Shown here in pieces: positions 6,718 through 44,636 of a stretch of DNA of 64,000 nt. The stretch comes from Candidatus Omnitrophota bacterium (GTDB taxonomy: Bacteria > Omnitrophota > Gorgyraeia > Gygaellales > JAQTUX01). The position numbers and the translations under genes were made by a program. The DNA is taken from NCBI GenBank assembly GCA_028707125.1, contig JAQTUX010000001.1:608662-672661 (forward strand), given 5' to 3'. A model generated the notes under the pieces. The model did no database searches and was not told the origin of the DNA. It saw only the letters and a list, made by a program, of their open reading frames with translations. Each line of letters starts with the position of its first letter. The first letter of the stretch is position 1.

Positions 6718-6718
6718 T

Positions 6719-29062: not shown

Positions 29063-29464
29063 ATGAAAACTATAAAGCGTTTTGGCGTTTCTTTGGAAGA
29101 GGGGCTGCTTAGCGAGTTGGACGGCCTGGCAAAAAGGCAGAAGTTCCCCAGCAGGAGCCAGGCAATAAGATTCCTCATAAGGAACAATGTAGTAGAAGAT
29201 GCCTGGCAGAGTAATAAAGATGTTGCCGGATGCATCGTCCTGATCTATGACCATCATAAAAGGGACCTGGTAAATAAATCTCTGGATATCCAGCACAAGT
29301 TCGGCCATTTGATCCTTTCCAGCCAGCACGTCCATTTAGACCATCATAGCTGCCTGGAGATGGTTGCCTTGAAAGGTAGTGCCTCCGGGCTTAAGGAGTT
29401 GGCCGATAGTTTAATATCCCTGAAAGGCATAAAGCACGGCAGATTGGTTATGACAGGGGTTTAA
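29063..29464 (+). CDS. nikR: nickel-responsive transcriptional regulator NikR
   Basis: RHH N-terminus. C-terminal nickel-binding His/Cys cluster (HHKRD..HLDHHSCLE). Confidence 0.85.
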   Translation: MKTIKRFGVSLEEGLLSELDGLAKRQKFPSRSQAIRFLIRNNVVEDAWQSNKDVAGCIVLIYDHHKRDLVNKSLDIQHKFGHLILSSQHVHLDHHSCLEMVALKGSASGLKELADSLISLKGIKHGRLVMTGV

Positions 29465-29531
29465 TTTTTTTTCTTTCCTGGTAGCACGATTTTCAAAAAG
29501 GTGATATATATAGGTAAAGAAAGGGGGAAAG

Positions 29532-30881: not shown

Positions 30882-30895
30882 ATACAGAAAGGAGG

Positions 30896-31537
30896 ATGAT
30901 TATGCATATACCGGACGGATTTCTGGCGGTTAATACCTGGGCGCCCGCGTGGTTGATCTCTTTAGGCGGTTTAAGTTTCTGTTTCAAAAGGACTGCCGCT
31001 ACACTGAAAGATAGAATGGTGCCGTTAATGGGTGTCGCGTCCGCCTTTATTTTCGCGGCGCAGATGCTTAATTTTCCCGTAATGGCAGGGACTTCCGGGC
31101 ATCTGTTAGGGGGCGTCCTGGCAGCGGTTTTGCTTGGGCCTTGCGCGGGGGCGATCGTGATCGCCGTAGTCCTTATCGCCCAGTGTTTTATATTTCAAGA
31201 TGGAGGGTTTACTGCCTTGGGCGCCAATATCTTGAACATGTCCTTTATAGGGGCCGGGGCGGGTTATTTTATTTATAACGGTATCAGGACGGTTATAGGC
31301 GGCGATAGAGGGGTGGTTGTCGGCGCGGCTGCCGCGGCCTGGGCCTCTGTGGTTCTGGCTTCCAGCGCCTGCGCCGTTGAACTGGCCATATCCGGCACAT
31401 CGCCTCTGAAGGCAGCGCTTCCCGCGATGGCAGGGGTGCACGCGCTTATAGGCATAGGCGAGGCAATGATCACTTCAGTGGTTATCGGATTTGTATTGAA
31501 GGTAAGGCCGGATCTGATATATAATAAGGAGGCATAA
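30896..31537 (+). CDS. cbiM: ECF nickel/cobalt transporter substrate-capture subunit CbiM/NikM
   Basis: N-terminal MHIPDGFL motif. Polytopic membrane protein. Confidence 0.85.
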   Translation: MIMHIPDGFLAVNTWAPAWLISLGGLSFCFKRTAATLKDRMVPLMGVASAFIFAAQMLNFPVMAGTSGHLLGGVLAAVLLGPCAGAIVIAVVLIAQCFIFQDGGFTALGANILNMSFIGAGAGYFIYNGIRTVIGGDRGVVVGAAAAAWASVVLASSACAVELAISGTSPLKAALPAMAGVHALIGIGEAMITSVVIGFVLKVRPDLIYNKEA

Positions 31538-31539
31538 TT

Positions 31540-31833
31540 ATGGGAAAAAAAGATATATTTTTCAGTTTGATTTTAGCGCTTTTCCTGGCTGGGGCGCTTT
31601 CGCTTTTTGCCTCTTCCTGGCCCGACGGGCTGGAGAAGGTCGCTGAAACAAAAGGGTTCTTGGAAAAAGGAGAGGGCAGGCCTGTTTTTGTTTCTCCTGT
31701 TCCGGATTATGCCTGGCCGGGCATGGAAAATGAGGGGTTGGCTACCGCTGCCGCGGGCATAGCGGGGACGCTGATAGTGTTCGGCGCGGGGTATGGATTA
31801 GCAGCCTTTATCAGGCGGCGTCAAAATGAATGA
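31540..31833 (+). CDS. CbiN/NikL-like small membrane component
   Basis: 97 aa, two TM helices. Lies between cbiM and cbiQ. Confidence 0.55.
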   Translation: MGKKDIFFSLILALFLAGALSLFASSWPDGLEKVAETKGFLEKGEGRPVFVSPVPDYAWPGMENEGLATAAAGIAGTLIVFGAGYGLAAFIRRRQNE

Positions 31834-32477
31834 AACATTTTTATATAGATAAATACAGCGATATAGACAGTCCGTTTCAACGGCTTGACGCGAGGGTAAA
31901 GGTCGTCGGTTTTATCGCCTTTATTTTGTCTATAGCGCTTACCCCCGCGCGTCTATTTATCGCTTTTTTATTCTACGGGCTGCTTATCTGCCGGCTGGCC
32001 CTGTTGTCAAAGGTGCCGCTTTTGTTCATCCTTAAGAGGTCGCTGGTGATCGTCCCTTTTGTATTAATGGTAACGGTCTTTATCCCTTTCTTTAAAAAAG
32101 GCCCCGAAGGCCTGATGATCTTCTGGAATGTCCTGATAAAGTCATCTTTATCCATTTGTTGCGCGGTTCTCCTTACTTCAAGTACCAGGTTTACCTATAT
32201 ATTAAAGGCGCTTCAGGACCTGAGATGCCCGAAACTGCTGACTACAGTGCTTTCTTTTATGTATCGCTATATTTTCGTTGTGCAGGATGAATTGATGGAG
32301 ATGCTTCAGGCAAAAGAGTCCAGGTCAGCCGGCGGCTCAAGATGGTTTAATGTGAAGGCGCTGGCTAATATCGCCGCGGTTTTATTTATTAAGAGTTATG
32401 AAAGGGCGGAGGCCGTGTACCTGGCCATGTGTTCAAGGGGATTCACCGGGCACATACATACAATAAATGACAGATAA
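31830..32477 (+). CDS. cbiQ: ECF transporter transmembrane subunit CbiQ
   Basis: 215-aa polytopic protein in an M-N-Q-O arrangement. Confidence 0.75.
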   Translation: MKHFYIDKYSDIDSPFQRLDARVKVVGFIAFILSIALTPARLFIAFLFYGLLICRLALLSKVPLLFILKRSLVIVPFVLMVTVFIPFFKKGPEGLMIFWNVLIKSSLSICCAVLLTSSTRFTYILKALQDLRCPKLLTTVLSFMYRYIFVVQDELMEMLQAKESRSAGGSRWFNVKALANIAAVLFIKSYERAEAVYLAMCSRGFTGHIHTINDR

Positions 32478-33222
32478 GGCAGTTGAGATCAACGGTTTAA
32501 GTTACAGTTATCCTGATGGCACGGCCGCGCTTGACAATATAGGCCTGGAGATATCAAAAGGCGAATCTTTGGGTATTGTCGGGCCGAACGGAGCGGGGAA
32601 GTCAACGCTGCTCCTGCATCTAAACGGAATATTGAGGCGTAATGGCAGTGTAAAGGTCCTGGGGATGGATGTAAATGATGATAACCTGCCATTGATCAGG
32701 GGCAAGGTAGGCCTGATTTTTCAGGACCCGGACAGCCAGCTTTTTATGCCTACGGTTCGCGAAGACGTATCATTCGGCCCGGTCAATATGATGCTCGCCA
32801 GGGATGAAGTGGATAGGCGCGTCAAGGGGGCGTTGGAAGAAGTGGATATGTCAGGTTTTCTTGACCGTCCTTCTCATCACTTAAGTTTTGGCGAGAAAAG
32901 GAGGGTTTCTATCGCCACTGTTCTTTCTATGAAGCCGGAGATCCTGGCGCTGGATGAGCCCAGCAGCAATTTAGACCCGAAGCACAGGCGCGATCTGATA
33001 AACTTTCTTAAAGGGATAAAACTCACAAAGATAATCGCCACGCATGACCTGGAGCTGGTGCTCGAGGTCTGTTCGCGCGTGGTATTGCTGGATAAGGGGA
33101 GGGTTGTTGCTTGCGGGGATAACAAAGCGATATTGAAAGACAGGGATTTGCTGGATAAGCATAATCTGGAAGTGCCTTATTCATTGAGGCAGGGCAGTAT
33201 TAATATATCAGAAAATACTTGA
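32467..33222 (+). CDS. cbiO: ECF transporter ATPase CbiO
   Basis: Walker A GPNGAGKST, signature LSFGEKRR, Walker B LALDEP. Confidence 0.85.
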   Translation: MTDKAVEINGLSYSYPDGTAALDNIGLEISKGESLGIVGPNGAGKSTLLLHLNGILRRNGSVKVLGMDVNDDNLPLIRGKVGLIFQDPDSQLFMPTVREDVSFGPVNMMLARDEVDRRVKGALEEVDMSGFLDRPSHHLSFGEKRRVSIATVLSMKPEILALDEPSSNLDPKHRRDLINFLKGIKLTKIIATHDLELVLEVCSRVVLLDKGRVVACGDNKAILKDRDLLDKHNLEVPYSLRQGSINISENT

Positions 33223-33275
33223 CAGAAGCCGTAGAGTAAGGTATATTTAGTAATGGAAACCACTTTCATCAAGGA

Positions 33276-33761
33276 GTGATCTTAAAAATGCCAAGAGGTG
33301 AATGCGGTAGAGAGGGGTGGTGGCACGGCAGATTCAGGGGCTGCGGCTACCGGCTTACTACAGGCCGGGAGGCGATCCTTGATGTCCTGTCTAAATCAGA
33401 AGGCCACTTGAGCGCCGAGGATATATACATGAAGGTTCACTTGAAGCACCCTAATACCGGGCTTACCACTATTTACAGGACATTAGACGTGCTGTCCGAT
33501 CTTGGCATGATATATAAGCTTGATTTCGGCGATGGCAGGGCTCGTTATGAATTAGCAGAAGGCCCTAAAGGAGCGCATCATCACCATCATTTAGTCTGTA
33601 CCGGCTGCAAAAGGGTGATCGATTATACGGACTTTATTGATGAAGAAGTGGAGCTGCTCCAGCAAACAGAAAAGGGCCTGGGGAAAAAGTATAATTTTAA
33701 GATCAACAATCACGTTATCCAGTTTTATGGCTTATGCGAAAAATGCGGCGGCAAGAAATAA
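33276..33761 (+). CDS. Fur-family metalloregulator (Zur/Nur-like) with His5 tract
   Basis: Winged-helix TIYRTLDVLSDLGMIYK, HHHHHLVCTGC, C-terminal CEKCGG. The first roughly 10 codons may be an over-extension. Confidence 0.75.
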   Translation: MILKMPRGECGREGWWHGRFRGCGYRLTTGREAILDVLSKSEGHLSAEDIYMKVHLKHPNTGLTTIYRTLDVLSDLGMIYKLDFGDGRARYELAEGPKGAHHHHHLVCTGCKRVIDYTDFIDEEVELLQQTEKGLGKKYNFKINNHVIQFYGLCEKCGGKK

Positions 33762-33816
33762 CCGCTATATTTTTTTTCTTTATTAATGGAAATGGTTTTC
33801 AATAACAGAAAGGAAG

Positions 33817-34209
33817 GTGATAGTTATGCCAGGTTTTGACGGAACAGGGCCGCAGGGAGCAGGCCCTATGACAGGAGGGGGCAGAGGTTATTGCGCCTTT
33901 CCCCTATCGGGCAACAGGCCAATGTATGCCGGCCAAAGATTCTTTGGCAGAGGGGGCGTAAGAGGCCGAAGAAATCGGTATTACGCAACCGGGCTTACCG
34001 GTTGGCAGAGAGCCGCAATGGGGATGCCCTTTGGCTTTGCTAATGGAGGGCCTGCTTTTGGCGGGGCGTATCCTTACACGCCTGCGATTACGCCGAAGCA
34101 AGAAACGGATATCTTAAGAAATGAAGCTGAATTTCTAAGAAAGCAGCTTGAAGATATCCAGGGCCGCATTGATGCTTTAGAGGATGCCCGGCAGGAAAAG
34201 GGCGAATAA
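33817..34209 (+). CDS. DUF5320-family protein (Gly/Arg-rich N-terminus, C-terminal coiled coil)
   Basis: MPGFDGTGPQGAGPMTGGGRGYCA... typical DUF5320 N-terminus. Confidence 0.6.
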   Translation: MIVMPGFDGTGPQGAGPMTGGGRGYCAFPLSGNRPMYAGQRFFGRGGVRGRRNRYYATGLTGWQRAAMGMPFGFANGGPAFGGAYPYTPAITPKQETDILRNEAEFLRKQLEDIQGRIDALEDARQEKGE

Positions 34210-34233
34210 TTATAATTTGAGAAAGGAGCGGTT

Positions 34234-34632
34234 ATGCGCATAGCTATATCCACAGATGGAGAGTTTGTGTCTGCTCATTTCGGCAGATGCCCTTCTTTTA
34301 CTCTTGTTGATATTGAGGATAGCAAGGTAACTAAGAGGGTGGAAGTCGCTAATCCCGGGCATCAGCCGGGAGCAATCCCCGAGTTTTTGCATAAAAAAGG
34401 CGTCAATTGTATCGTCGCCGGAGGCATGGGAATGCGGGCGGTGTCATTTTTTGAGGACTATGGTATTAAGACGATCGTGGGGGTAAGCGGAAAGATCGAT
34501 GACGCAGTAGAGCAGCTTAAAAAAGGCACATTAGAAGGCGGTGAGAGTCTTTGTAAACCCGGAGCGGGTAAGGGTTATGGTTTGGAGAAAGAGGAATGCG
34601 ACCATCCGCACGAGGATGATTGCGGGCATTAA
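34234..34632 (+). CDS. NifX/NifB-C-type (dinitrogenase FeMo-cofactor biosynthesis domain) protein
   Basis: MRIAISTDGEFVSAHFGRCPSFTLVDIE..., PF02579-type fold. C-terminal CDHPHEDDCGH metal site. Confidence 0.7.
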   Translation: MRIAISTDGEFVSAHFGRCPSFTLVDIEDSKVTKRVEVANPGHQPGAIPEFLHKKGVNCIVAGGMGMRAVSFFEDYGIKTIVGVSGKIDDAVEQLKKGTLEGGESLCKPGAGKGYGLEKEECDHPHEDDCGH

Positions 34633-34649
34633 ATCAGGGAGGTAGCAGC

Positions 34650-35027
34650 ATGAAAATTTGCGTAACTTCGCAAGGCAGGGATTTGGGCGCGCAGGTTGAC
34701 CCGCGTTTCGGCAGATGCCAATATTTTATTATTGCCGATACCGATACGTTGGAATTCGAGGCTGTTGAGAATCCCAATATCAAATCTATGGGTGGCGCGG
34801 GGATTCAATCCGCGCAACTGGTTGCTTCTAAGAGAGTTAAGGCGATGCTTACGGGAAACGTCGGGCCCAATGCCTTTCAAACATTGCAGGCGGCAGGGAT
34901 AGAGGTTTTTACCGGCGCATCCGGCACGGTTAAAGAAGCGATTGAGAAGTATAAAAAGGGGGAATTCAAGGCTGTTTCCGGACCAAGCGTCGGTTCTCAT
35001 GCCGGAATGCCGGGCAAGAAAAAATAG
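34650..35027 (+). CDS. second NifX/NifB-C-type protein
   Basis: MKICVTSQGRDLGAQVDPRFGRCQYFIIADTD... Start taken at the ATG at 34650. Confidence 0.7.
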   Translation: MKICVTSQGRDLGAQVDPRFGRCQYFIIADTDTLEFEAVENPNIKSMGGAGIQSAQLVASKRVKAMLTGNVGPNAFQTLQAAGIEVFTGASGTVKEAIEKYKKGEFKAVSGPSVGSHAGMPGKKK

Positions 35028-35038
35028 GAGGTGGGAAG

Positions 35039-35290
35039 ATGCCGTTTTTTGAACCGTTAGAAAAGATGGATCCCAAGCATGTTGATTTAGAAAGAGCAAG
35101 AAAATCGCTGCGCGAAGAACTTGAAGCAGTAGATTTTTATCAGGAACGGATTGACGCGACCAGCGATGAATCATTAAAACATCTTCTCGCGCATAATATG
35201 AATGAAGAGAAGGAACACGCGGCAATGCTTATGGAATGGATCAGGAAGAACGATCCGGTTCAAGATAAGATGTTTAAAGAGCACGATTAA
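35039..35290 (+). CDS. small ferritin-like / rubrerythrin-like helical protein
   Basis: EAVDFYQER and NEEKEHAAML (E..E..H metal motifs). 83 aa. Confidence 0.4.
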   Translation: MPFFEPLEKMDPKHVDLERARKSLREELEAVDFYQERIDATSDESLKHLLAHNMNEEKEHAAMLMEWIRKNDPVQDKMFKEHD

Positions 35291-35379
35291 GCCGTCATTT
35301 GCGCGGCGCTTTAAAGGCGGGAATAAATTAAGGATGACCCGGAAAAATTTTAGCGCGAAGAGGAAGAGGAGGTAAGAAA

Positions 35380-35832
35380 ATGCCTGCAGGGCATGAAAAG
35401 ACCAAGCAAAAGGCTTTCGGTTACGAGCTTCTTCTTGATCTTTATAATTGTAAGAAGGGGGTTTGCGATAATTTACTTCTTTGTTATCGATTTCTCGATG
35501 ATATCGTGATACATCTGGGGATGGAAAAACAATCTCCGCCGAGTATTTTTTTTACGGATGCAAAGCGCTTTCCTGATAAAGCCGGTCTTTCCGGATGGGT
35601 TCCCCTGGTGGAAAGCTCGATTGTAATCCATACTTTAAGCCTTAAGAATTTCATAACCATTGATATCTATTGTTGCCGGGATTTTGATGAGCAGAGTGCA
35701 TTGGATTTTTGTAAGCGGTATTTTTTACCTGACAGGGTGGAAACACAGTTTTTGTATAGAGGTATTGATTATTATGTTAAAAGAAGCGCTCAAGCAAAAC
35801 CGGCCGATCAAGCTTTAATCGGGATTTCTTAA
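35380..35832 (+). CDS. S-adenosylmethionine decarboxylase-like proenzyme (SpeH-type, pyruvoyl)
   Basis: GYELLLDLYNC and VESSIVIHTL...IDIYCC resemble the ES cleavage site and flanking motifs. Confidence 0.5.
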   Translation: MPAGHEKTKQKAFGYELLLDLYNCKKGVCDNLLLCYRFLDDIVIHLGMEKQSPPSIFFTDAKRFPDKAGLSGWVPLVESSIVIHTLSLKNFITIDIYCCRDFDEQSALDFCKRYFLPDRVETQFLYRGIDYYVKRSAQAKPADQALIGIS

Positions 35833-35855
35833 GGCGCTATAAGGAGGCGATTACT

Positions 35856-36056
35856 ATGCCAAGAGGAGATGGAACCGGCCCTATGGGGCAAGGATCGGGA
35901 ATGGGAAGGGGCATGGGTAGAGGCAGAAGAGGCGCGGCAGGCCCGGGAGGAAATTGTGTCTGTCCAGGTTGCGGGGCCAAAGTCACCCATCAGGCAGGCA
36001 CGCCTTGTGCCTCAATGAACTGCCCTAAATGCGGCATAAGGATGGTAAGAGAATAA
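35856..36056 (+). CDS. DUF5320-like protein with C-terminal zinc ribbon
   Basis: MPRGDGTGPMGQGSGMGRG..., CPGCG...CPKCG. Confidence 0.55.
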   Translation: MPRGDGTGPMGQGSGMGRGMGRGRRGAAGPGGNCVCPGCGAKVTHQAGTPCASMNCPKCGIRMVRE

Positions 36057-36066
36057 GGATCGGATT

Positions 36067-36678
36067 TTGGACAAAGAGGTTTTAGAGAATCATAAAAAGT
36101 ATTTAGAAAGAGCCCGCTTTTACCGAAGCTTCGGTTACGATTTAGAAAAGGAAAGAGATTTTATCCTCGATAGATCCCTGCCTATTTCCGGAGAGATACT
36201 TGAGATCGGTACCGGTAAAGGTCATTTTGCGCTTGCCTTGGCAAGGCGCGGCTATAGTTTTATAAGCGTAGATATTTCCAGGCAGGAACAAGAGATCGCT
36301 ATGTTAAACCTGCGGTATTCCGGTCTGGAAAGGCAGGCCATTTTTAAAATTGAGGATGCCGGGCATTTAAGTTTTTCAGACCGAAGCTTTGATACCATAT
36401 TTTCTATCAATGTCTTTCATCATTTAGAAAAACCCGTGGCAGTTTTAAATGAGATGGTCCGTCTTTTGCGCCAGGGCGGCAAAGCGGTCTTAAGCGATTT
36501 TAACGATAAAGGATTGGAGATAATTAACGCCTGTCATAGCGCTGAAGGACGCACGCATGATTATTTTAAACATCGTTTAAGTGAGGCAGGGGAGTATTTC
36601 ATTGTGAAAGGATTTGCTGTCAGGGAGTACCGGAGTGAAGTCCAGAAAGTACTTATAGCCGAACGAACTCAAGGATAA
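36067..36678 (+). CDS. class I SAM-dependent methyltransferase
   Basis: Motif I ILEIGTGKGHF. Confidence 0.7.
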   Translation: MDKEVLENHKKYLERARFYRSFGYDLEKERDFILDRSLPISGEILEIGTGKGHFALALARRGYSFISVDISRQEQEIAMLNLRYSGLERQAIFKIEDAGHLSFSDRSFDTIFSINVFHHLEKPVAVLNEMVRLLRQGGKAVLSDFNDKGLEIINACHSAEGRTHDYFKHRLSEAGEYFIVKGFAVREYRSEVQKVLIAERTQG

Positions 36679-36683
36679 GAAAT

Positions 36684-37538
36684 ATGGTTATTTCAGTGGC
36701 AAGCGGGAAAGGCGGAACAGGGAAGACGACGGTCGCGGTCAACCTGGCTTTATCTATTGATAATGTGCAATTCCTCGATTGCGATGTGGAAGAACCCAAC
36801 GCCCACATTTTTCTTAAACCCCAAATCAAAGAAAAGGAAAAGGCGTATATCCCTGTTCCTGAAATCGATGAATCAAAATGTAATTACTGCGGCAAATGCG
36901 CCCAAGTTTGCGTTTATAACGCTATAGCGATCCTTCCGTCGCAAAATGGGAAAAAGGGCGCTACCCTGGTATTCGCGCAGCTATGCCATGGATGCGGCGC
37001 CTGCAGCGCTCTCTGCCCTCAGGGCGCGATAAAAGAAGTCAATAGGGAGATCGGCGTTGTAGAGATGGGCAATCGCGGCGAAATAGAATTTGTTCATGGA
37101 AAACTTAATATCGGCGAAGCAATGTCTCCGCCGCTTATCCGGCAGGTCAAAGAGCATATAAATCCCGGGAAAACCGTTATTATAGACGTTCCTCCGGGTA
37201 CATCCTGCCCTGTAGTTGCTTCAATCAAAGGCAGTGACTTTTGCGTATTAGTTACTGAGCCGACCCCCTTTGGTTTGAATGACCTGATTTTAGCGGTTGA
37301 GGTATTAAGAAAGCTCAAAACCCCTTTTGGCGTCGTAATTAACCGCGCTGACTTAGGAAATACTGAAACCGAGGAATACTGCAGGAAAGAAAATATCCCT
37401 ATTTTAATGAGGATACCGTTTAAAAAAGAGATAGCCGTGGCTTATTCCACGGGAGAGCCTATGGTTAAGGCATTTCCGGAGTATAAGAAAGATTTTTATG
37501 GTCTTTTTAATACAATAAAAAATGGAAAACTTCGTTAA
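36684..37538 (+). CDS. MinD/Mrp-family P-loop ATPase with inserted 2x[4Fe-4S] ferredoxin domain
   Basis: SGKGGTGKTT. CNYCGKCAQVC and CHGCGACSALCP. Confidence 0.75.
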   Translation: MVISVASGKGGTGKTTVAVNLALSIDNVQFLDCDVEEPNAHIFLKPQIKEKEKAYIPVPEIDESKCNYCGKCAQVCVYNAIAILPSQNGKKGATLVFAQLCHGCGACSALCPQGAIKEVNREIGVVEMGNRGEIEFVHGKLNIGEAMSPPLIRQVKEHINPGKTVIIDVPPGTSCPVVASIKGSDFCVLVTEPTPFGLNDLILAVEVLRKLKTPFGVVINRADLGNTETEEYCRKENIPILMRIPFKKEIAVAYSTGEPMVKAFPEYKKDFYGLFNTIKNGKLR

Positions 37539-37550
37539 AGGAGCGATTCT

Positions 37551-38897
37551 ATGAATAAGAAAGCGGATATTCTTATCATCGGCGCCGGTCCCGCCGGAAT
37601 GGTAACCGCGGTTACAGCCAGGAGGTATTATACGGATAAGAATATTTTGGTGATAAAGGATGTAAATAATGGCTGTATTCCTTGCGGGATCCCGTATATG
37701 TTCTCGAGCCTAAAGAATCCCCAGGATAATATTTTGGGGACAGATGCTTTAGCGAAGAATAACATTAAAGTTGTGGTTGATGAGGCATTTAAGATCAACC
37801 GGGGCAAAAAGAGCGTGGAAACAAAAAAGGGCGATGAATACGCTTATGAAAAGTTGATTTTAGCCGCAGGTTCTTCGCCTATTATTCCAAAAATTCCCGG
37901 TATTGATAAGAAAGGCGTCTATCCCATACATAAAGACATGGATTATCTTAAAGCTTGCGTTGAAGAAATTAAAAAGGCAAAAAGCGTTTTGATTATAGGG
38001 GGAGGTTTTATAGGGGTAGAGTTTGCGGATGAGATTTCGAAACTCCCGGAAATTAGCGTGCATTTGGCAGAGGTTCTTCAGGGATTATTGGCGAATTCTT
38101 TTGATAGGGATTTTTCATCATTGGTTGAAGAAAAACTGAAAAGTAAAGGCGTTAATATTATCTTAAATAGCAAGATTGTTGAGATTTTGGGTAAGGGAAA
38201 GGTAGAAGGCGTACGGTTTGAGAATGGCAAGGATTTAAAGGTGGATAGCATTATTTTAGGGATAGGCGCGCTTCCTAATACAAAGCTTGCAACTGACGCG
38301 GATTTGGACTTAGGCAAGGGAAAGGGGCTGTGGGTGGATGAATATATGCGTACTTCTGATCCCGATATTTTTGCGGTAGGGGATTGCGCGGGCAAAAGAG
38401 ATTTTTATACGCGCAGGGATACTGCGGTTATGCTTGCTTCAACCGCTACTGCTGAAGCAAGGGTCGCGGGAGCGAATCTTTATCAATTAAAGGTTGTGCG
38501 CGAAAATAAAGGGACAATCGCAATCTACTCCACATATGTGGATGGGCTGGTTTTAGGTTCGGCAGGGCTTACGGAAACAAGCGCTAAAAAGGAGGGGTTT
38601 GAAATTATAATAGGAAACACGGAAGGGGTAGACAAGCATCCCAAGAGTTTACCCGGGGCAAATAAGGTTAAAGTGAGATTGATTTTCGCTAAACAGTCCG
38701 GGATATTAATGGGAGGGCAGGTTTTTGGAGGGATATCCGCGGGAGAGATGATTAATATTATCGGCATGGCCATTCAAAAAAGAGTTTCTATTACAGAATT
38801 AGAGACATTGCAGATGGCAACGCATCCATATTTGACAAGCGCGCCTACTATGTATCCGATTGTATTAGCGGCTCAGGATGCTTTGGGCAAGATGTAG
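37551..38897 (+). CDS. FAD-dependent pyridine nucleotide-disulfide oxidoreductase (NADH oxidase / CoA-disulfide reductase-like)
   Basis: ILIIGAGPAGMVTA. Second Rossmann motif LIIGGGFIGVEFA. Confidence 0.75.
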   Translation: MNKKADILIIGAGPAGMVTAVTARRYYTDKNILVIKDVNNGCIPCGIPYMFSSLKNPQDNILGTDALAKNNIKVVVDEAFKINRGKKSVETKKGDEYAYEKLILAAGSSPIIPKIPGIDKKGVYPIHKDMDYLKACVEEIKKAKSVLIIGGGFIGVEFADEISKLPEISVHLAEVLQGLLANSFDRDFSSLVEEKLKSKGVNIILNSKIVEILGKGKVEGVRFENGKDLKVDSIILGIGALPNTKLATDADLDLGKGKGLWVDEYMRTSDPDIFAVGDCAGKRDFYTRRDTAVMLASTATAEARVAGANLYQLKVVRENKGTIAIYSTYVDGLVLGSAGLTETSAKKEGFEIIIGNTEGVDKHPKSLPGANKVKVRLIFAKQSGILMGGQVFGGISAGEMINIIGMAIQKRVSITELETLQMATHPYLTSAPTMYPIVLAAQDALGKM

Positions 38898-38899
38898 TT

Positions 38900-39778
38900 T
38901 TGAGTTTTGGAGCATATATGAAACAGATAGTTATCATTAGCGGAAAGGGCGGTACGGGCAAGACCGTAATTACCGGAGCGTTTGCCGCGTTAGCAAAGAA
39001 TAAGGTCATGGCTGACTGCGATGTTGATGCCGCGGATTTACATTTATTATTGCAGCCAGAGATCAAAGAACGCCATGATTTCAGGAGCGGCCTGAGCGCC
39101 TCGATTGATAAAAAAACCTGCTTGAAGTGCGGACAATGCCTTGCGGCCTGCAGATTCAGCGCGATAAGCGATGATTTCGTGATTGACCCTGTTTCCTGCG
39201 AAGGGTGCGCTTTTTGCAGCCATATTTGTCCGGTTGGCGCTATAAGAATGGAAGAGAATCTTGCAGGTGAATGGTTTATTTCAGAAACGCGATTCGGCCC
39301 TATGGTGCACGCGAAACTCGGCATTGCCGAAGAGAATTCCGGGAAACTTGTTTCTCTGGTAAGGAAGCAGGCAAAAGAACTGGCAGAGAAGCGTAATTGC
39401 GATTGGGTGATCATTGACGGGGCCCCGGGCATAGGATGCCCTGTTATCGCGTCTCTTTCCGGCATTGATTACGCGGTAGTGGTCACAGAGCCCACCCTTT
39501 CCGGGCTTCACGACGCGGACAGGGTTATAGGTGTGGCCAGGCATTTCGGCATCGCAAGCAAGTTGATAATAAACAAATATGATATTAACGTTGATATGAC
39601 AGGGAAAATAGAGGGGTATTGCAGGAATAATAATCTTGATTTGATCGGGAAGGTCCCCTTTGATAAATCTATAGTAGAGGCGATGGTCGAAGGTAAGACC
39701 ATAATAGAATATGGCATCGGCAAGGCCGGGCATGAAATTATGCGTGCCTGGCAGGCAATACAGGATAGCCTGAAATAA
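38900..39778 (+). CDS. second MinD/Mrp-family ATPase with 4Fe-4S ferredoxin domain
   Basis: SGKGGTGKTV. CLKCGQCLAAC and CEGCAFCSHICP. Confidence 0.75.
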   Translation: MSFGAYMKQIVIISGKGGTGKTVITGAFAALAKNKVMADCDVDAADLHLLLQPEIKERHDFRSGLSASIDKKTCLKCGQCLAACRFSAISDDFVIDPVSCEGCAFCSHICPVGAIRMEENLAGEWFISETRFGPMVHAKLGIAEENSGKLVSLVRKQAKELAEKRNCDWVIIDGAPGIGCPVIASLSGIDYAVVVTEPTLSGLHDADRVIGVARHFGIASKLIINKYDINVDMTGKIEGYCRNNNLDLIGKVPFDKSIVEAMVEGKTIIEYGIGKAGHEIMRAWQAIQDSLK

Positions 39779-39800
39779 CCTGTTCAAGAGGGAGGATGAA

Positions 39801-40406
39801 ATGGAAAATATTCATCAAAGGTTTTCTGATAAGTTCGGGAGCCATTGGATTAAGGTGAAATTTTACCGGGAGAAACCGGAGTGCGAAGCTAAACGATTAA
39901 AGGGGGTAAGATTTTGCGAGGCAACAAAAGAGGCGATTTTATACCCCGTTTTGCTGGATAAGGAGAGCGTTATATGCTCCGGCGCGCAGCATGCCTTTGG
40001 CTGGAACGCTCTTTCCCAAGACATGCTTTTGCAGGGCTGCGGCGATAAGAGAGGCGCGCAGGCGGATACCCTGGAATCTATACTGTCACGATCGCCTCGC
40101 TTACAAGACGCCTTCGAGCATATAGGGCTGAATACCGAAGATGCCCCTGACCTTGTTATGTCGTATATGCCGCCCCAGCAGGTTATGGAATTGATAAAGG
40201 TCTATCATAATAAAAAAGGCAGCAGCCTGGATGTTTCTCTGTGTACAATGATGGCTGTTTGCGGGGGGATAGCGGTAAGGACATATTTAGAGGAAAAGAT
40301 AAGTTTTTCCTTTGGTTGTGATGATTCACGCAGGTTAGCCGACATGCGAAGGGATAAATTGGCGGTCGGTATCCCGAGAAGGATGTTCGACCTATTCGTG
40401 GATTAA
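39801..40406 (+). CDS. hypothetical protein (possibly DUF169-like)
   Basis: 201 aa, several Cys. No confident motif. Confidence 0.35.
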   Translation: MENIHQRFSDKFGSHWIKVKFYREKPECEAKRLKGVRFCEATKEAILYPVLLDKESVICSGAQHAFGWNALSQDMLLQGCGDKRGAQADTLESILSRSPRLQDAFEHIGLNTEDAPDLVMSYMPPQQVMELIKVYHNKKGSSLDVSLCTMMAVCGGIAVRTYLEEKISFSFGCDDSRRLADMRRDKLAVGIPRRMFDLFVD

Positions 40407-40419
40407 ATATAAGGTTTGA

Positions 40420-41199
40420 ATGAGTAGTAAAACTTATAAATATATTTATGGGCCTGTGCCTTCCTGGCGGCTGGGCAGTTCACTGGGGATAGACCCTCTT
40501 TCGCAGGGCGCAAAGGTATGCACATTTAACTGCATTTACTGCCAATTGGGCACAGGCGGGATTTTTACCGGTGAACGAAAGGCGCTGGTTCCGGCGGCAG
40601 AGATAATGGATGAATTGGATTCGCTGCCGCCGTTGACTATAGATTATATAACCTTTTCCGGCACCGGTGAGCCTACCTTAGCCGGCAACTTAGGACAAAT
40701 GATAAAGGCCGTAAAAAAAATAAGGAACGAAAAGGTCGCGGTGCTGACAAATTCTTCGTTGATACACAGAGAAGACGTTCAAAAGGACATATTTTGCGCG
40801 GATTTTGTTGTTGCCAAATTAGACGCTGTTTCGCAAAAGGTATTTGAGCTGGTTAACCAACCGATGAAAGATATTAAGGTCGATACTATTATCCAGGCAA
40901 TAAAAGATTTTAAAAGCCGTTATTTGGGAAAATTGGCATTGCAGATTATGTTTATAGAGCAAAATAAAAATCATGCTCCGGAGATCGCGAAGATCGCAAA
41001 AGAGATAAATCCTGATGAAGTCCAGCTTAATACGCCTCTTAGGCCGTGCAGAGTAAAGCCTCTGTCCAGGCAAGAATTGGATGAAATAAAAAGATATTTT
41101 GAAGGTTTAAAGGTAATATCTGTTTATGAAGCCGGGATAAAAAAGGTTAAGCCCGTAAGCGATGAAGACACATTGAAAAGAAGGGGCAAGGTTAAATAA
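40420..41199 (+). CDS. radical SAM protein
   Basis: CTFNCIYCQ (CxxxCxxC). FSGTGEP SAM-binding motif. Confidence 0.8.
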   Translation: MSSKTYKYIYGPVPSWRLGSSLGIDPLSQGAKVCTFNCIYCQLGTGGIFTGERKALVPAAEIMDELDSLPPLTIDYITFSGTGEPTLAGNLGQMIKAVKKIRNEKVAVLTNSSLIHREDVQKDIFCADFVVAKLDAVSQKVFELVNQPMKDIKVDTIIQAIKDFKSRYLGKLALQIMFIEQNKNHAPEIAKIAKEINPDEVQLNTPLRPCRVKPLSRQELDEIKRYFEGLKVISVYEAGIKKVKPVSDEDTLKRRGKVK

Positions 41200-41270
41200 T
41201 GCAATGCCGGTCAGGCGCAGATATCCAGGCCCAGGATAATTGTGTTAGACGATAAGAATAGGATAAAAGC

Positions 41271-42170
41271 ATGAAGACCTATTTAGATTGCGTCCCTTGC
41301 TTCTTCCGCCAGGCGCTGGAGGGCGCGCGAATCGTTCAGGCATCGCCAAAACAACAAAAGCAGATTATAGACGCATTTGCCAGGAAGATACCGGAGATTT
41401 CGCTTGAAGCCAGCCCTCCCGAAATAGCCGGGTTTGGATACGCCCTTTTAAAAAGAATAAGCCCCAACGGCGATCCTTATAAACAAATAAAGCAAAGAAG
41501 CAATCGTATTGCTTTACGGCTATTAGGTAAATTAAGGAATAAAATTGATCATTCCCGGGACCGAATCTTGGCAGCGTTAGAGCTGGCAATTGCCGGCAAT
41601 ATTATAGATTTTGGCGTTAAAAATAATTTAAATGTAAAAGCGGAATTGAAGAGGATACTCGCGCAAGAACGTAAGAGCATTCATAGAAAATCCATATTTC
41701 ATTATTCAGAATTCAGGCGGGCATTAAAAGGGGCGGTAGATATTTTATATCTGGCTGATAATGCCGGAGAGGTTGTCTTCGACCGGGTTTTAATTGAAGA
41801 AATGAAAAAAGAGTATCCGGATAAGAATATTTATTACGCTGTTAAGGCAAGGCCTATTATAAATGACGCCTTGCTAGAAGACGCAAAGGCCTGCGGAATT
41901 GATAAAGAGGCAAGGGTGATCTCTAACGGTACTGAAGCCCCGGGCACGATACTTTCCTTATGCTCAAAAGAATTTAAGCGGATTTATAAGAGCGCTGATT
42001 TAGTAATCAGCAAGGGCCAGGGAAATTTCGAATCTTTATCACAAGAAAAAAGGCCTATTTTTTTCTTGTTTATGGTCAAATGCCCGGTGGTGGCAAAGGA
42101 AACCGGCTGTAAAATGGGGAATATAGTATTACTCTATAATTTAAAGAAAAATGGAACCCTTAAAAATTAA
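41271..42170 (+). CDS. DUF89 / ARMT1-like damage-control phosphatase family protein
   Basis: N-terminal CVPC motif and overall size typical of DUF89. Confidence 0.55.
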   Translation: MKTYLDCVPCFFRQALEGARIVQASPKQQKQIIDAFARKIPEISLEASPPEIAGFGYALLKRISPNGDPYKQIKQRSNRIALRLLGKLRNKIDHSRDRILAALELAIAGNIIDFGVKNNLNVKAELKRILAQERKSIHRKSIFHYSEFRRALKGAVDILYLADNAGEVVFDRVLIEEMKKEYPDKNIYYAVKARPIINDALLEDAKACGIDKEARVISNGTEAPGTILSLCSKEFKRIYKSADLVISKGQGNFESLSQEKRPIFFLFMVKCPVVAKETGCKMGNIVLLYNLKKNGTLKN

Positions 42171-42651
42171 GAAATACCCCGATAGCGTTTTACGGAACAA
42201 ATCTCTGGATGTAAAAGAAATTACCGATAAAGAAACCAGGCTTTTTGAGGAGATGTTCTTTACTATGCGTCATTTTGCCGGTATTGGTTTAGCGGCCCCG
42301 CAAATCGGGATTTTAAAAAGATTGATAGTTGTGGATATAGGTGAAGGCCCGATAAGATTGGCCGACCCGGTAATCTTAAATACAAAAGGATCGGATAAAA
42401 TGGAGGAGGGATGCCTGAGTATTCCCGGCATAGGTGTTATTATAGACAGGCCGAATGAAATTATTGTAAGCGGTTTGAATGAGTCAGGGATGGCAGTTGA
42501 ATTCAAGGCGCAGGGGCTTTTGGCAAGGGTGCTCCAGCATGAGATAGATCACTTAAGCGGAAGATTAATCATAGATTATTTGGGCCTGTTAGAAAAGTTC
42601 AAATTAAGGCTGCATACAAGAAGGAGGGGCAGGAAATATGCCGATTTATGA
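42151..42651 (+). CDS. def: peptide deformylase
   Basis: GIGLAAPQIG, EGCLSIPG, QHEIDHL. Confidence 0.9.
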   Translation: MEPLKIKKYPDSVLRNKSLDVKEITDKETRLFEEMFFTMRHFAGIGLAAPQIGILKRLIVVDIGEGPIRLADPVILNTKGSDKMEEGCLSIPGIGVIIDRPNEIIVSGLNESGMAVEFKAQGLLARVLQHEIDHLSGRLIIDYLGLLEKFKLRLHTRRRGRKYADL

Positions 42652-42886
42652 ATATAAATGCAGGGATTGCGGTAAAGTGAGCGAGTTTTTGATCGGAGTT
42701 ACTAATGACGCCGTTGAAATCAGGTGTAGTTTCTGCAACAGCGGTAATTTAGATAAAATATTTTCCTCGAGTTTCGTGTCTAAAGGCGGCCGCATAATTG
42801 GCTCTCAGGGAGGGCAAACCTGCTGCGGCAGGACGGAAAGGTGCGATACGCCGCCTTGTTCAGGAGACGGGGTTTGTAAAAGATGA
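42638..42886 (+). CDS. FmdB-family zinc-ribbon protein
   Basis: MPIYEYKCRDCG...CSFCNS. Confidence 0.75.
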   Translation: MPIYEYKCRDCGKVSEFLIGVTNDAVEIRCSFCNSGNLDKIFSSSFVSKGGRIIGSQGGQTCCGRTERCDTPPCSGDGVCKR

Positions 42887-42941
42887 AATCAGCCTGATCG
42901 CCATTAGCGATGCAATGATCGGGAAGCGGCAAGGGGGGTGA

Positions 42942-43586
42942 ATGTTGAAACAAATCTCTCAAGAATTAAAAAGACACACTCCTTTTACTATCTTTGGAGC
43001 AATAACAGGTATTGTAATAATGCTCATTTTCCAAAGATTTCCATCAAAGGCAGCCTACAATATTTTTTACATCTTACATCCTATCCACGTGGTTTTAAGC
43101 GCGCTTGTTACCTCCGCTATATATAAACTGCATTCTTGTCCTCCCGGCAGGCATATAAAAGGCAAATGTAACCTCTGGATGTTATTTATAATTGGTTATA
43201 TAGGCTCTGTAGGCATTGCCACGATCAGCGATTCCATTATTCCCTACTTAGGAGAAGTATTGCTTAAAATGCCAAAAAGAGAAATACATTTAGGTTTTAT
43301 TGAGAAATGGTGGCTGATTAATCCGCTGGCAATATCAGGCATTATCATCGCGTATTTTAAGCCGACAACCAAGTTCCCTCACGCAGGGCATGTTTTAATC
43401 AGCACCTGGGCATCGCTCTTTCATATCATTATGGCGACAGGCCAAGAATTAAATTTAGTTTCTTATATCGTCGTACTTTTATTTTTGTTTCTTGCTGTCT
43501 GGCTTCCCTGTTGCGTAAGTGATTTTATATTTCCTTTACTTTTTGTTAAGGAAGCAAAGATGACATTTCAAAAGAAAGGGGGATGA
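42942..43586 (+). CDS. hypothetical polytopic membrane protein
   Basis: 214 aa, 5-6 TM helices. Confidence 0.5.
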   Translation: MLKQISQELKRHTPFTIFGAITGIVIMLIFQRFPSKAAYNIFYILHPIHVVLSALVTSAIYKLHSCPPGRHIKGKCNLWMLFIIGYIGSVGIATISDSIIPYLGEVLLKMPKREIHLGFIEKWWLINPLAISGIIIAYFKPTTKFPHAGHVLISTWASLFHIIMATGQELNLVSYIVVLLFLFLAVWLPCCVSDFIFPLLFVKEAKMTFQKKGG

Positions 43587-43668
43587 GAAATGGAAATTAA
43601 TGTAAATGACAAGAATCTTAAACAAGAGGTATTGGAATCAAATACCTCTTTAATTAGAGCGTATTCAG

Positions 43669-43995
43669 GTGAAGACGATGGCAGATTTTAAGCAGATTGA
43701 TGAAGCGAGGAAATTATTAGGATTAGGGGAATACGCAAGTTTGGAGGAAATAAAAGACGCTTACCGCGATCTTAGCCTGAAGTATCATCCTGATCGATGT
43801 AAAGAGGCGGACAAAAAGCGCTGCGAGGAGGCGTTCAAAAAGATAAACCATGCGATGGATATTATCGGCAGCTACTGCGCAAATTACCGCTATTCTTTTA
43901 ATGAGAAAGAGGTCAGGAAAAACAGCATGTCGAAAGAGGAATATGAACACCTTAAGAGGTTTTTCGACGGCCTGTTTGGAGATCTGGATTTATGA
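43669..43995 (+). CDS. J-domain protein
   Basis: YRDLSLKYHPDR (HPD motif). Confidence 0.75.
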   Translation: MKTMADFKQIDEARKLLGLGEYASLEEIKDAYRDLSLKYHPDRCKEADKKRCEEAFKKINHAMDIIGSYCANYRYSFNEKEVRKNSMSKEEYEHLKRFFDGLFGDLDL

Positions 43996-44612
43996 CTCAT
44001 GTTTTCGATAGATATTATAAGAAATATGATGCCTGGTATGACAGGCATAGATTCGCGTTTTTATCGGAACTGGAGGCCATAAAAAAGGTGCTGCCGCGAG
44101 ATGGAAAAGGGCTGGAAATTGGCGTAGGCACAGGCAGGTTTGCCGCTGCTTTAGGCATTACAACGGGGATAGACCCTTCGCGTAATATGCTTGAGATCGC
44201 TCAGGAGAGAGGCGTGAATGTCCGTTTTGGTTTCGGTGAAGACGTCCCTTTTTTAAACGATACCTTTGATCGCGTGGCGATTATTATTACTTTATGTTTT
44301 GTAAAAGACCCTCAAAAAGTTCTTAAAGAAGCCAAAAGGGTCTTGAAAAAAAGCGGCAGGATTATTATCGGCATCATAGATAAGGATAGTTTCTTAGGTA
44401 AATTCTATCAGAGAAAGAAAAGTATTTTTTATAAGCGGGCAAGGTTTTTCAGCGTTAAAGAGGCCGCGCGGTTGCTCAAAGAGGCAGGGTTTATTAATCT
44501 CTCTTATTATCAGACATTATTCAGGACTCCGGATAAGGTGGATTCAATTGAGAAACCCAAAAGAGGTTTTGGTAAGGGCGGTTTTGTGGCGATATCGGGA
44601 GAAAAGAGATGA
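43992..44612 (+). CDS. class I SAM-dependent methyltransferase
   Basis: LEIGVGTGRF motif I. Confidence 0.7.
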   Translation: MTHVFDRYYKKYDAWYDRHRFAFLSELEAIKKVLPRDGKGLEIGVGTGRFAAALGITTGIDPSRNMLEIAQERGVNVRFGFGEDVPFLNDTFDRVAIIITLCFVKDPQKVLKEAKRVLKKSGRIIIGIIDKDSFLGKFYQRKKSIFYKRARFFSVKEAARLLKEAGFINLSYYQTLFRTPDKVDSIEKPKRGFGKGGFVAISGEKR

Positions 44613-44636
44613 GAGGTACTAACAGGTTTAACTCAA

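Follow-up and report, generated by a model that had tools for sequence, protein, structure and literature searches.

Positions 33276–42170 of a 64-kb stretch of DNA from a Candidatus Omnitrophota bacterium (64,000 nucleotides, referred to throughout as the window) encode an Omnitrophota variant of the ORP (orange protein) cluster, placed under its own Fur-family regulator. The reading we favour, with a probability of roughly 0.6, is that of a Fur-controlled ORP-type system which stores or transfers inorganic metal-sulfide, most likely Fe-S, in an ATP-driven manner. An original prediction, made from the letters of the window, had proposed a run of 14 co-oriented, tightly packed genes that begins with a Fur-family regulator and serves the assembly or trafficking of a complex Fe-S or Ni-Fe cofactor, with most of the families recurring together in anaerobes without an assigned pathway. 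All 14 plus-strand genes are present between 33276 and 42170, with gaps of 2–89 bp or overlaps between them, and scans of the window open reading frames (ORFs) against Pfam and NCBIfam profiles, used for all family assignments, bear out the named families, with one DUF5320 protein (35856–36056) falling below threshold and supported by its motif. The recurrence of these families in anaerobes also stands, however the gene set is not undescribed, with its core being that of the Desulfovibrio ORP cluster.

The ORP complex cluster of Desulfovibrio vulgaris Hildenborough was reportedly described by Fievet and colleagues in 2011. Its genes form two divergent operons, arranged as orp3-orp4-orp5 / orpR / orp7-orp8-orp9 (PMC6345978; PMC8359166), and the complex comprises two MinD-like proteins, Orp3 and Orp4, each bearing a pair of [4Fe-4S] motifs, together with Orp5, Orp8, and Orp9 (MrpORP). 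Orp8 is a NifX-like orange protein that binds a Mo-Cu-S cluster, whilst Orp9 consists of an Mrp/NBP35 domain fused to a NifX-like (Di-Nase) domain and hands Fe-S to Orp3-Orp4-Orp8 in vitro (PMC6345978). A literature search for newer work on ORP returned nothing beyond PMC6345978 and PMC8359166.

The counterparts of Orp3 and Orp4 in the window are two MinD-type ATPases with an inserted 2x[4Fe-4S] ferredoxin domain, encoded on the plus strand at 36684–37538 (CbiA 4.2e-16, ParA 2.1e-16; Orp3/Orp4-like) and 38900–39778 (CbiA 2e-13, ParA 2e-10; likely start ATG 38918). These paralogues are 36% identical in a MAFFT alignment, with both carrying a deviant Walker A motif and two CxxCxxCxxxC motifs. 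The eight ferredoxin cysteines are invariant in 83 orthologues of paralogue 1 and 75 orthologues of paralogue 2, as is an extra cysteine in a PGxxCP segment (C175 and C180 respectively), and in paralogue 1 the signature and Walker A lysines, K9 and K14, are likewise invariant in all 83, with C33 kept in 82. The two NifX-like carriers are also encoded on the plus strand. Carrier A (34234–34632; Pfam Nitro_FeMo-Co 3.9e-22) matches 1t3v, 1o13, and 2yx6 (TM1290/PH0822) in the PDB, and is 37% identical to the NifX (Di-Nase) domain of an Mrp-NifX fusion in a related locus, L056. Carrier B (34650–35027, alternative start 34620; Nitro_FeMo-Co 2.4e-26) is of the orange-protein (Orp8)/MTH1175 type, a basic protein (pI 9.4) with full-length PDB matches to the D. 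gigas ORP (2wfb, 8.2e-22) and to MTH1175 (1eo1, 9e-23). Both carriers have short tails, and in the NCBIfam scan the NifX-like and the MinD proteins alike pointed to 'MrpORP'.

The company kept by these proteins was assessed in species-representative genomes, with BLASTP of the window proteins against all ORFs of 80 loci bearing 50–73% identical MinD-ferredoxins, all from other species, giving counts of same-strand homologues (individual loci are cited by number). The loci derive from Bacteria (Omnitrophota, Planctomycetota, Dehalococcoidia, Clostridia, Desulfobacterota, WOR-3, Acidobacteriota, Ignavibacteria, and Armatimonadota) and Archaea (Methanosarcina, Methanocellaceae, Bathyarchaeia, Altiarchaeota, Thermoplasmatota, and Methanophagales). 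A second MinD gene is found in 75 of the 80 loci, and lies immediately downstream of the first in 58, with a NifX-like gene of either kind in 74 (a carrier B homologue in 68), a DUF5320 gene in 44, and an FmdB zinc ribbon in 31. DUF89 follows with 16 loci spread across phyla, then the MBL hydrolase (15–16), radical SAM (13–15), Fur (9), the methyltransferase (6, and 8 for a second type), Pyr_redox (5–7, in only one of which it lies between the two MinD genes), and DUF169 (3), whilst EncFtn-like, AdoMetDC-like, and CbiMNQO genes are found in none. Clustering exceeds chance for the core and several accessory genes. The neighbourhood conservation across genomes that the original prediction had suggested checking is thus seen for MinD, NifX, and DUF5320, and the scattering in relatives that it had named as counter-evidence does not affect this core; for four of the 14 genes the reverse is true, and the idea of all 14 as one conserved pathway is not upheld, given the zero counts of EncFtn and AdoMetDC, the three loci with DUF169, and the single locus with the oxidoreductase between the MinD genes.

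The breadth of this distribution bears on the published Desulfovibrio hypothesis, in which the MinD-like ATPases act in cell division or spatial positioning, with the metal centres serving only as regulatory or redox sensors. An AlphaFold (AF2) model of ATPase 1 (pLDDT 77.8) finds its best fold matches in MinD, FlhG, ParA, and FleN, as such a role would have it, and loss of OrpR in D. vulgaris leads to morphological defects, with MrpORP found at a cell pole (PMC8359166, PMC6345978). The same model also matches HypB, CooC1, BchL, and NifH, and by this predicted fold the MinD-ferredoxins belong to the dimer-switch (MinD/ParA/NifH) ATPase class; since that class includes many metal-centre insertases, fold alone does not separate a positioning role from one at a metal centre. 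The MinD fold is common to the metal-centre ATPases HypB, CooC, BchL, and NifH, and the neighbours seen here and in relatives are genes of iron, sulfur, and Fe-S metabolism (Fur, DtxR, FeoAB, NifU_N, Mrp, DsrE, and thioredoxin), with no MinC/MinE, Fts, or Par partners seen. Furthermore, many of the organisms carrying the cluster are archaea, which divide by different systems, and we consider a role in division or positioning very unlikely.

The regulator of the cluster, and the operator with which it is paired, are a new point of this analysis. The Fur-family gene (33288–33761, +; Pfam FUR 1.9e-31) likely starts at ATG 33288 (MPRGE...), the ORF list giving GTG 33276, and both hidden Markov model and PDB scores favour Fur over PerR and Zur. 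The best solved structures are those of Fur (9ire, 108 bits), compared with 75 bits for PerR (2fe3), and the NCBIfam Fur model scores 134.7 bits against 83.7 for PerR, with every equivalog score lying below its cut-off. The protein has the HHxH region and structural CxxC pairs of the family, with alignments showing AHHHHHLVCTGC and LCEKC, and what had been singled out as a His5 tract is this ordinary Fur metal-site region followed by CxxC, and is not tag-like. The recognition helix, TIYRTL, carries an arginine as in Fur. An N-terminal extension, WWHGrFRGCGYR, lies outside the match to solved Fur structures and is conserved in orthologues tied to the cluster; its cysteines may form an extra sensing site. 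In the fuller form encoded at 33288–33340, MPRGxC..GWWHGrFRGCGYRLT, the extension is common to cluster-adjoining orthologues of Omnitrophota, WOR-3, and Clostridia. Three Fur orthologues selected by way of the regulator are each located directly upstream of the same cluster.

Ahead of the regulator gene, a sigma-70-like promoter (TTGACA-17-TATATT, 33219–33247, +) matches the consensus at 11 of 12 positions, with a TTGACA and a TATA-type hexamer at the equivalent place in L002, L005, L006, L030, L060, L081, and L083. A conserved 21-bp palindrome, TAATGGAAAnnnnTTTCAnTA, is present at this promoter and again before the first DUF5320 gene. The first copy, putative operator 1 (TAATGGAAACCACTTTCATCA, 33251–33271), comes right after the -10 hexamer and scores 24.0 bits against a position weight matrix, whilst the near-identical putative operator 2 (TAATGGAAATGGTTTTCAATA, 33784–33804; 30.5 bits) is located between the fur stop codon and the DUF5320 start, 21 nt before the start codon. 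A Fur-type box upstream of 33817, proposed as a check by the original prediction, is therefore found, and is conserved in relatives. Ten related loci have a site equivalent to operator 1, and eight have operators at both positions (among them L002, L006, L060, L081, L083, L084, and L086), with a single position occupied in L005 (Clostridia) and L030. The matrix was built from 14 sites, and L084 and L086, fetched later and kept out of it, each show two sites of 28.6–30.8 bits at the expected places. Across the 64-kb window, operators 1 and 2 are the only matrix hits of at least 12 bits, shuffled sequences giving an average of 0.23.

The symmetrised consensus of the operator, TAATGAAAATCATTTTCATTA, has the core TGAAAAT-n-ATTTTCA, a 7-1-7 repeat. 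Fur-family boxes follow a 7-1-7 model, and the operator half-site departs from TGATAAT, that of classical Fur boxes, only in its fourth position, with the core starting with TG as Fur boxes do, and not with TT as PerR boxes do. From its placement, operator 1 probably mediates autoregulation of the regulator. The earlier proposal of the Fur-family gene as regulator of the string is well founded, the regulator being a dedicated one with operators conserved in related loci. The orp operons of D. vulgaris depend on OrpR, a sigma-54 activator, and are switched off as the redox potential rises (PMC8359166). In the window the Fur-family regulator takes the place of OrpR: the sigma-54 promoter pattern has fewer matches than expected by chance, none of them in the promoter region, and no enhancer-binding protein (EBP) gene is present, whereas OrpR-like EBPs occur in 11 of the 80 other loci.

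A peroxide-sensing, PerR-like regulator would give the cluster a different meaning, that of an oxidative-stress or repair regulon in which an EncFtn ferroxidase, an NADH-oxidase-like flavoprotein, thioredoxin, a J-protein, and the MBL hydrolase protect or repair Fe-S proteins that oxygen has damaged. Several of the accessory genes are indeed typical of anaerobe PerR regulons, and PerR (2fe3) is a significant match to the regulator. The scores given above, however, place Fur ahead of PerR in both models and structures, and the arginine of the TIYRTL helix and the TG-starting operator are Fur-like, the box comparison being based on the 7-1-7 model. The stress-type genes, moreover, make up the variable part of the cluster and not its core, and the orp operons of D. 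vulgaris are turned off, not on, at rising redox potential (PMC8359166), leaving a PerR regulon a quite improbable explanation.

The second new point of this analysis is the link between DUF5320 and IssA, the Fe-S store of Pyrococcus furiosus. The long DUF5320 form (33826–34209, in an ORF from 33817, +; Pfam 4.9e-17) consists of an MPGFDGTGPxGxGPMTGxGRGYC motif, a Gly/Arg/aromatic-rich region, and a C-terminal coiled coil, and in the alignment this form shows an MPGGDGTGPxGxGPMTGRAAGYC motif, GRG/aromatic repeats, a YATGLxGWxR motif, and the coiled coil. The short form (35856–36056, +) combines an MPRGDGTGP motif with a Gly/Arg-rich linker and a Cys-rich zinc ribbon; the Pfam N-terminal motif reaches 20.9 bits, under the cut-off of 27, with the assignment backed by the motif, the zinc ribbon, and 24 motif-bearing orthologues, and the short form is found in 33 of the 80 loci. 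Residues 1–95 of the long form contain 24% Gly, 11% Arg/Lys, 15% aromatic, 11% Pro, and 1% acidic residues. This composition matches that published for the IssA tail, which in 70 residues has 15 Gly, 7 cationic, 14 aromatic, and 11 Pro, and for which electrostatic binding of anionic thioferrate has been proposed (PMC5524996). Fusions point the same way, with an orange-protein-type NifX domain joined to a Gly/Arg-rich segment and the DUF5320 coiled coil in L008, to the DUF5320 zinc ribbon in L005, and to a Gly/Arg-rich segment, coiled coil, and ferredoxin in L056. In Methanococcus voltae grown on FeS2, two IssA-clade proteins with locus tags four genes apart rise in abundance (PMC9431491). A literature search on DUF5320, COG1149, and DUF169 returned nothing relevant.

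Among the best 150 of the 1660 DUF5320 family representatives (at 50% identity), the longer proteins are tandem repeats of the N-terminal motif. A DUF134 representative beside an ORP-type core (L011, 2916–3434) ends in a zinc ribbon and an Arg/Gly-rich tail, and together with DUF5320 and the NifX fusions this indicates that Arg/Gly-rich segments are attached to several modules of these neighbourhoods. No DUF134 gene is present in the 64-kb window. Taken to its furthest extent, the parallel would make DUF5320 and the orange-protein-type NifX a 'split IssA', and ORP-type clusters a widespread, metal-regulated store of iron and sulfide in the form of an inorganic Fe-S polymer or cluster pool, with the paired MinD-ferredoxins as its loading and unloading machine. 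We put this forward tentatively and regard it as doubtful; if true, it would describe an anaerobic counterpart of ferritin, and the ORP complex would finally gain a function.

In the broader reading of a Fur-controlled metal-sulfide system, the homology, synteny, and operator are those observed above, whilst what the system binds, which way it is regulated, and what the ATPases do are inferred. The NifX-like domains would hold an inorganic, anionic metal-sulfide non-covalently, most likely Fe-S (a cluster or a thioferrate-like species), or possibly a thiometalate as in the Mo-Cu orange protein, with the DUF5320 segments neutralising and stabilising this species as the IssA tail does. The two MinD-ferredoxins may work as an ATP-dependent dimer switch, relaying electrons or clusters so that the cargo is loaded, unloaded, or passed along, much as the related ATPases NifH, Nbp35/ApbC, CooC, and HypB do at other metal centres. 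Metal-bound Fur would shut the system off, and if the co-repressor is the classical iron, the cluster would be induced by iron shortage, like SUF. Interchangeable accessories, namely the EncFtn-like ferroxidase, the CoADR-like flavoprotein, the AdoMetDC-like protein, the methyltransferase, DUF169, the radical SAM enzyme, and DUF89, may supply sulfur, reductant, or S-adenosylmethionine (SAM) chemistry.

Several points weigh against this interpretation. A storage role usually wants induction at high iron, the opposite of classical Fur repression, and the metal sensed by a Fur-family protein is not readable from its sequence. There is no clear sigma-70 promoter between fur and the DUF5320 gene, which makes the mode of action of operator 2 uncertain. 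The D. gigas orange protein carries a Mo-Cu-S cluster and not Fe-S, and the role of ORP is described as 'still unclear' by authors who favour a link to cell division (PMC8359166). MrpORP, the Mrp-NifX fusion, is absent from the 64-kb window, which holds no Mrp-type ORF and only the stand-alone Di-Nase-like protein at 34234–34632, although such fusions are present in the relatives L056 and L069. With regard to DUF5320, fusions to NifX are rare, with none among the best 150 of the 1,660 representatives, and the Gly/Arg-rich segments could bind nucleic acids instead.

The remaining genes of the string vary more between relatives than the core does, and the EncFtn-like, AdoMetDC-like, oxidoreductase, and DUF169 genes are accessories found mainly in Omnitrophota. 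The backbone in the closer Omnitrophota runs Fur, DUF5320, NifX, NifX, slot 1, DUF5320-Zn, methyltransferase, MinD, slot 2, MinD, slot 3, radical SAM, and DUF89, and continues further on with MBL, a membrane protein, thioredoxin, DnaJ, and methyltransferase 2. Slot 1 contains a 56-aa ferredoxin, EncFtn, or AdoMet_dc in relatives; slot 2 contains CoA_binding with either a CoADR-like flavoprotein or a BioB/HydG-like radical SAM, DsrE, and an ABC transporter; and slot 3 contains DUF169, NifU_N, DUF2099, or Mrp, with a Prismane gene also among the alternative occupants in close relatives. At one extreme, 22 window genes retain their order in L084, those of the NikR-porin-Cbi unit described below among them, and the locus ends with FeoAB, whilst at the other the minimal locus L089 has Fur, two NifX, the methyltransferase, and two MinD, followed by unrelated genes. 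Genes of iron and sulfur metabolism in or beside the clusters of relatives comprise the NifU_N scaffold, Mrp, DsrE, CoA_binding with the CoADR-like gene, thioredoxin, Rrf2, hybrid-cluster protein, FeoAB, and DtxR-type repressors. Families found near the core elsewhere and missing in the window are DUF134 (15 loci), OrpR-like EBPs and receiver domains (11 each), DUF364/DUF4213 (9), CGGC (7), DUF1847 (6), DtxR-type repressors and pyruvoyl arginine decarboxylase (4 each), and FeoAB (3).

In the window, slot 1 is occupied by two genes. The first encodes a stand-alone EncFtn-like mini-ferritin of 83 aa (35039–35290, +; Pfam 6.3e-32), which covers positions 1–80 of the 114 of the TIGR04535 encapsulin-ferritin profile with a score below the cut-off, the C-terminal third being missing. 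No encapsulin shell gene is present among the scanned ORFs of the window, and the C-terminal targeting extension of EncFtn cargo is also lacking. The EncFtn-like protein is 95–97% identical in L083 and L086, while neighbouring genes are only 50–87% identical, which suggests unusually strong constraint or recent exchange. The second gene encodes an AdoMetDC-like pyruvoyl proenzyme (35380–35832, +; Pfam AdoMet_dc 2.1e-16), in which the Glu-Ser (ES) self-cleavage site, together with the histidine of IHT and the cysteine of YxC, lines up with solved AdoMetDCs, with ESH changed to ESS, the PE motif lost, and a TIGR03330 score of 49.7 against a cut-off of 75.65. Homologues occur in the same slot of L084 (74% identical) and elsewhere in the cluster of L081 (28%). 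Two unrelated pyruvoyl-dependent decarboxylase families are found beside ORP-type cores, PvlArgDC (4 loci, the representative being from Pirellulales, L068) and the AdoMetDC-like family (Omnitrophota), and these may indicate a link to polyamines or other amines.

The class I SAM methyltransferase (36067–36678, +; Pfam Methyltransf_11 6.3e-21) is a constant member of the Omnitrophota module, occupying the position just upstream of the first MinD gene in L081–L086, L088, and L089. Between the two ATPase genes lies a CoA-disulfide reductase (CoADR)/NADH oxidase-like flavoprotein (37551–38897, +; Pfam Pyr_redox_2 2.2e-60), with CoADR as the top NCBIfam match alongside NADH oxidase; the same slot holds a CoADR-like flavoprotein in L084 and L085 (86% identity), in L087 (68%), and, among Pirellulales, in L067 (69%). 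In L084–L086 the first MinD gene has a CoA_binding gene just after it, which in L084 and L085 immediately precedes the flavoprotein gene. The protein encoded at 39801–40406 (+), listed in the original prediction as hypothetical, is an accessory DUF169 protein (Pfam 9.2e-25), the slot of which is filled by NifU_N, DUF2099, or Mrp in relatives. The string ends with a small radical SAM enzyme (40420–41199, +; Pfam Radical_SAM 3.5e-14), also present in L081, L084, and L086, and a DUF89/ARMT1-like metal-dependent phosphatase (41271–42170, +; Pfam 8.9e-71), which is 82–83% identical in Omnitrophota relatives. The radical SAM enzyme has a single CX3CX2C motif, with all NCBIfam matches far below their cut-offs and no sequence match in the PDB, and a NifB-like assignment was rejected on the basis of this single cluster motif and the family cut-offs not reached.

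The gene content could also be taken to suggest that all 14 genes make up one pathway for a complex metallocofactor in the style of FeMo-co, with the radical SAM enzyme in the place of NifB, the NifX-like proteins as carriers, the MinD-ferredoxins in the place of NifH, and perhaps a Ni-Fe or heterometal product. The combination of NifX-like proteins, SIMIBI-class Fe-S ATPases, a radical SAM enzyme, and a methyltransferase does formally resemble the Nif maturation machinery, a Ni/Co transporter is encoded nearby and a HypA gene in L083, and the Mo-Cu cluster of the orange protein is itself heterometallic (PMC6345978). Of the 14 genes, however, most are not conserved partners, as the counts for EncFtn, AdoMetDC, DUF169, the methyltransferase, and radical SAM attest, and L089 gets by with its six genes. 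The radical SAM enzyme lacks NifB-like cysteines, and the cluster encodes no candidate target enzyme. The Ni transporter comes with a NikR of its own and without a Fur-type operator, and in L083 it is found at the opposite cluster end. As the original prediction had stated, there are no nitrogenase structural genes, with none of NifEN, NifH, or NifDK among the scanned ORFs of the 64-kb window. A single cofactor pathway is thus unlikely, and of the cofactor proposal with which the analysis began, the metal-sulfur link is retained, whilst the Ni-Fe part has no direct support. Variable gene content, accessories dominated by iron and sulfur genes, and a Fur-like regulator with its operator together count against a cofactor pathway, a cell-division role, and a PerR regulon.

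At the opposite extreme, the string may be seen as a mosaic, in which a conserved core of five to six genes lies amid unrelated co-directional genes and nothing beyond the core is functionally linked. A peptide deformylase gene does lie inside the run, what fills the slots between and after the MinD genes changes from relative to relative, and the sequence scan does not define operon limits. Against this, the cross-phylum recurrence of DUF89, radical SAM, MBL, and the zinc ribbon with the core (15–31 of the 80 loci), the 22 genes kept in order in L084, and the filling of the variable slots mostly by Fe-S and sulfur genes, not random ones, make a mosaic extremely improbable.

The regulated unit probably starts at the promoter and operator at 33219–33271, and, judging from synteny, probably ends near 45347, thereby including the Zn_ribbon_8, membrane protein, DnaJ, second methyltransferase, and MBL genes. 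An unbroken run of plus-strand genes extends from 29063 to 45347 with spacings of 2–89 bp or short overlaps. Promoter-like sites across the region are equal in number to those in shuffled sequence, and there is no strong terminator-like site inside the run, such that the scan does not set operon limits; for this reason only the fur promoter, backed by conservation, was used. An Rfam scan found no RNA element inside the cluster. DUF89 is followed by a peptide deformylase gene (42151–42651) and an FmdB-type zinc-ribbon gene (42638–42886, +; Pfam Zn_ribbon_8 2.1e-12), the latter lying outside the region originally noted and being a common partner of the core. The deformylase follows or lies just downstream of DUF89 in several Omnitrophota clusters (L003, L081, and L086), and overlaps the 3' end of DUF89 in the window and in L081. 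The genes at 42942–45347 (+), encoding a 214-aa membrane protein, a J-domain protein, a second methyltransferase, and an MBL-fold hydrolase, are syntenic in Omnitrophota clusters, with their order kept in L081, L083, and L084. The multi-pass membrane protein (42942–43586) is His/Cys-rich, with no Pfam or NCBIfam match, and is kept at 55–68% identity inside the same cluster in the Omnitrophota loci L001, L003, L081, and L083, and also in L077.

Directly upstream of fur, a complete NikR-controlled nickel/cobalt uptake unit occupies 29063–33222, with NikR (29063–29464, +) followed by an OprB-type porin, CbiM, a PDGLE protein, CbiQ, and CbiO. The unit lies upstream of the cluster in the window and in L084, and downstream, at the other cluster end, in L083. 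With the operator matrix, no further copy turned up ahead of nikR, the porin, or cbiM, nor ahead of any remaining gene in the 64-kb window, indicating that this Ni/Co energy-coupling factor (ECF) transporter belongs to a self-contained, separately regulated NikR unit. Further upstream, family scans of the window ORFs identify a type IV pilus/type II secretion system block. A magnetosome role was considered, as some Omnitrophota are magnetotactic, and was dropped because no Mam-type families occur in the region. Downstream of the MBL gene are two Thi4 genes, followed by Rrf2, PAPS reductase, and siroheme/tetrapyrrole genes; a TPP riboswitch (64.8 bits, 46255–46366) lies between the tandem Thi4-family genes (45432–46205 and 46415–47236) and precedes the second copy only. 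Elsewhere in the window, an nhaA-I RNA motif (47.3 bits, 13122–13175) is found upstream of two Band_7/SPFH genes (13236–15196), and a low-GC island at 6000–10000 (0.31–0.33, compared with ~0.49 elsewhere) encodes an 834-aa ResIII/DEAD helicase-like protein and is probably acquired defence or restriction DNA.

Few anaerobe-specific gene sets are shared as widely across Bacteria and Archaea as the ORP cluster, the role of which its discoverers still called unclear in 2021 (PMC8359166). In this variant, the system is tied to metal status through a Fur-family regulator of its own and a defined, conserved operator, and the predominance of Fe-S and sulfur trafficking genes among the accessories speaks against a role in cell division only. 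Additionally, domain fusions and composition connect DUF5320, a family of ~1,660 sequence clusters, to IssA through the cationic tail of this Fe-S store. Should the storage or trafficking reading be right, it would bear on iron and sulfide buffering, and on the supply of the very large Fe-S proteomes of strict anaerobes.

Among known systems, nitrogenase cofactor maturation (NifB, NifX/NafY, NifH, and NifEN) resembles the cluster in bringing a NifX-type carrier, a SIMIBI-class Fe-S ATPase, and a radical SAM enzyme into one neighbourhood, but the cluster has no NifB-type radical SAM, NifEN, NifH, or NifDK, and its ATPases carry an inserted ferredoxin domain where NifH has a bridging cluster. 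With Fur, PerR, and Zur regulons it shares the HHxH region, the two CxxC pairs, a 7-1-7 operator core after the -10 hexamer, and a regulator adjoining its targets, differing in half-site position 4 relative to TGATAAT and in the extra WWHGrFRGCGYR extension. IssA (PMC5524996) has the same globular domain (IPR003731/Nitro_FeMo-Co), a cationic, unstructured Gly/Arg/aromatic-rich partner segment, and links to iron and sulfide supply; in the window, however, the Gly/Arg-rich segment resides on a separate DUF5320 protein with its own N-terminal motif and coiled coil, the NifX polypeptides have no such tail, and MinD-type ATPases are not known to be needed by IssA. The closest likeness is that to the Desulfovibrio ORP cluster, from which the window differs in having one co-directional string in place of two divergent operons, a Fur-family repressor, palindromic operator, and sigma-70-like promoter in place of OrpR, sigma-54, and IHF, and added DUF5320, methyltransferase, EncFtn-like, AdoMetDC-like, CoADR-like, DUF169, radical SAM, and DUF89 genes. 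Common to both are the paired MinD-like ATPases with two [4Fe-4S] motifs each and a single-domain orange-protein-type NifX (the 2WFB match) accompanied by a second NifX-like domain, in a gene set that is anaerobe-specific and shared by Bacteria and Archaea.

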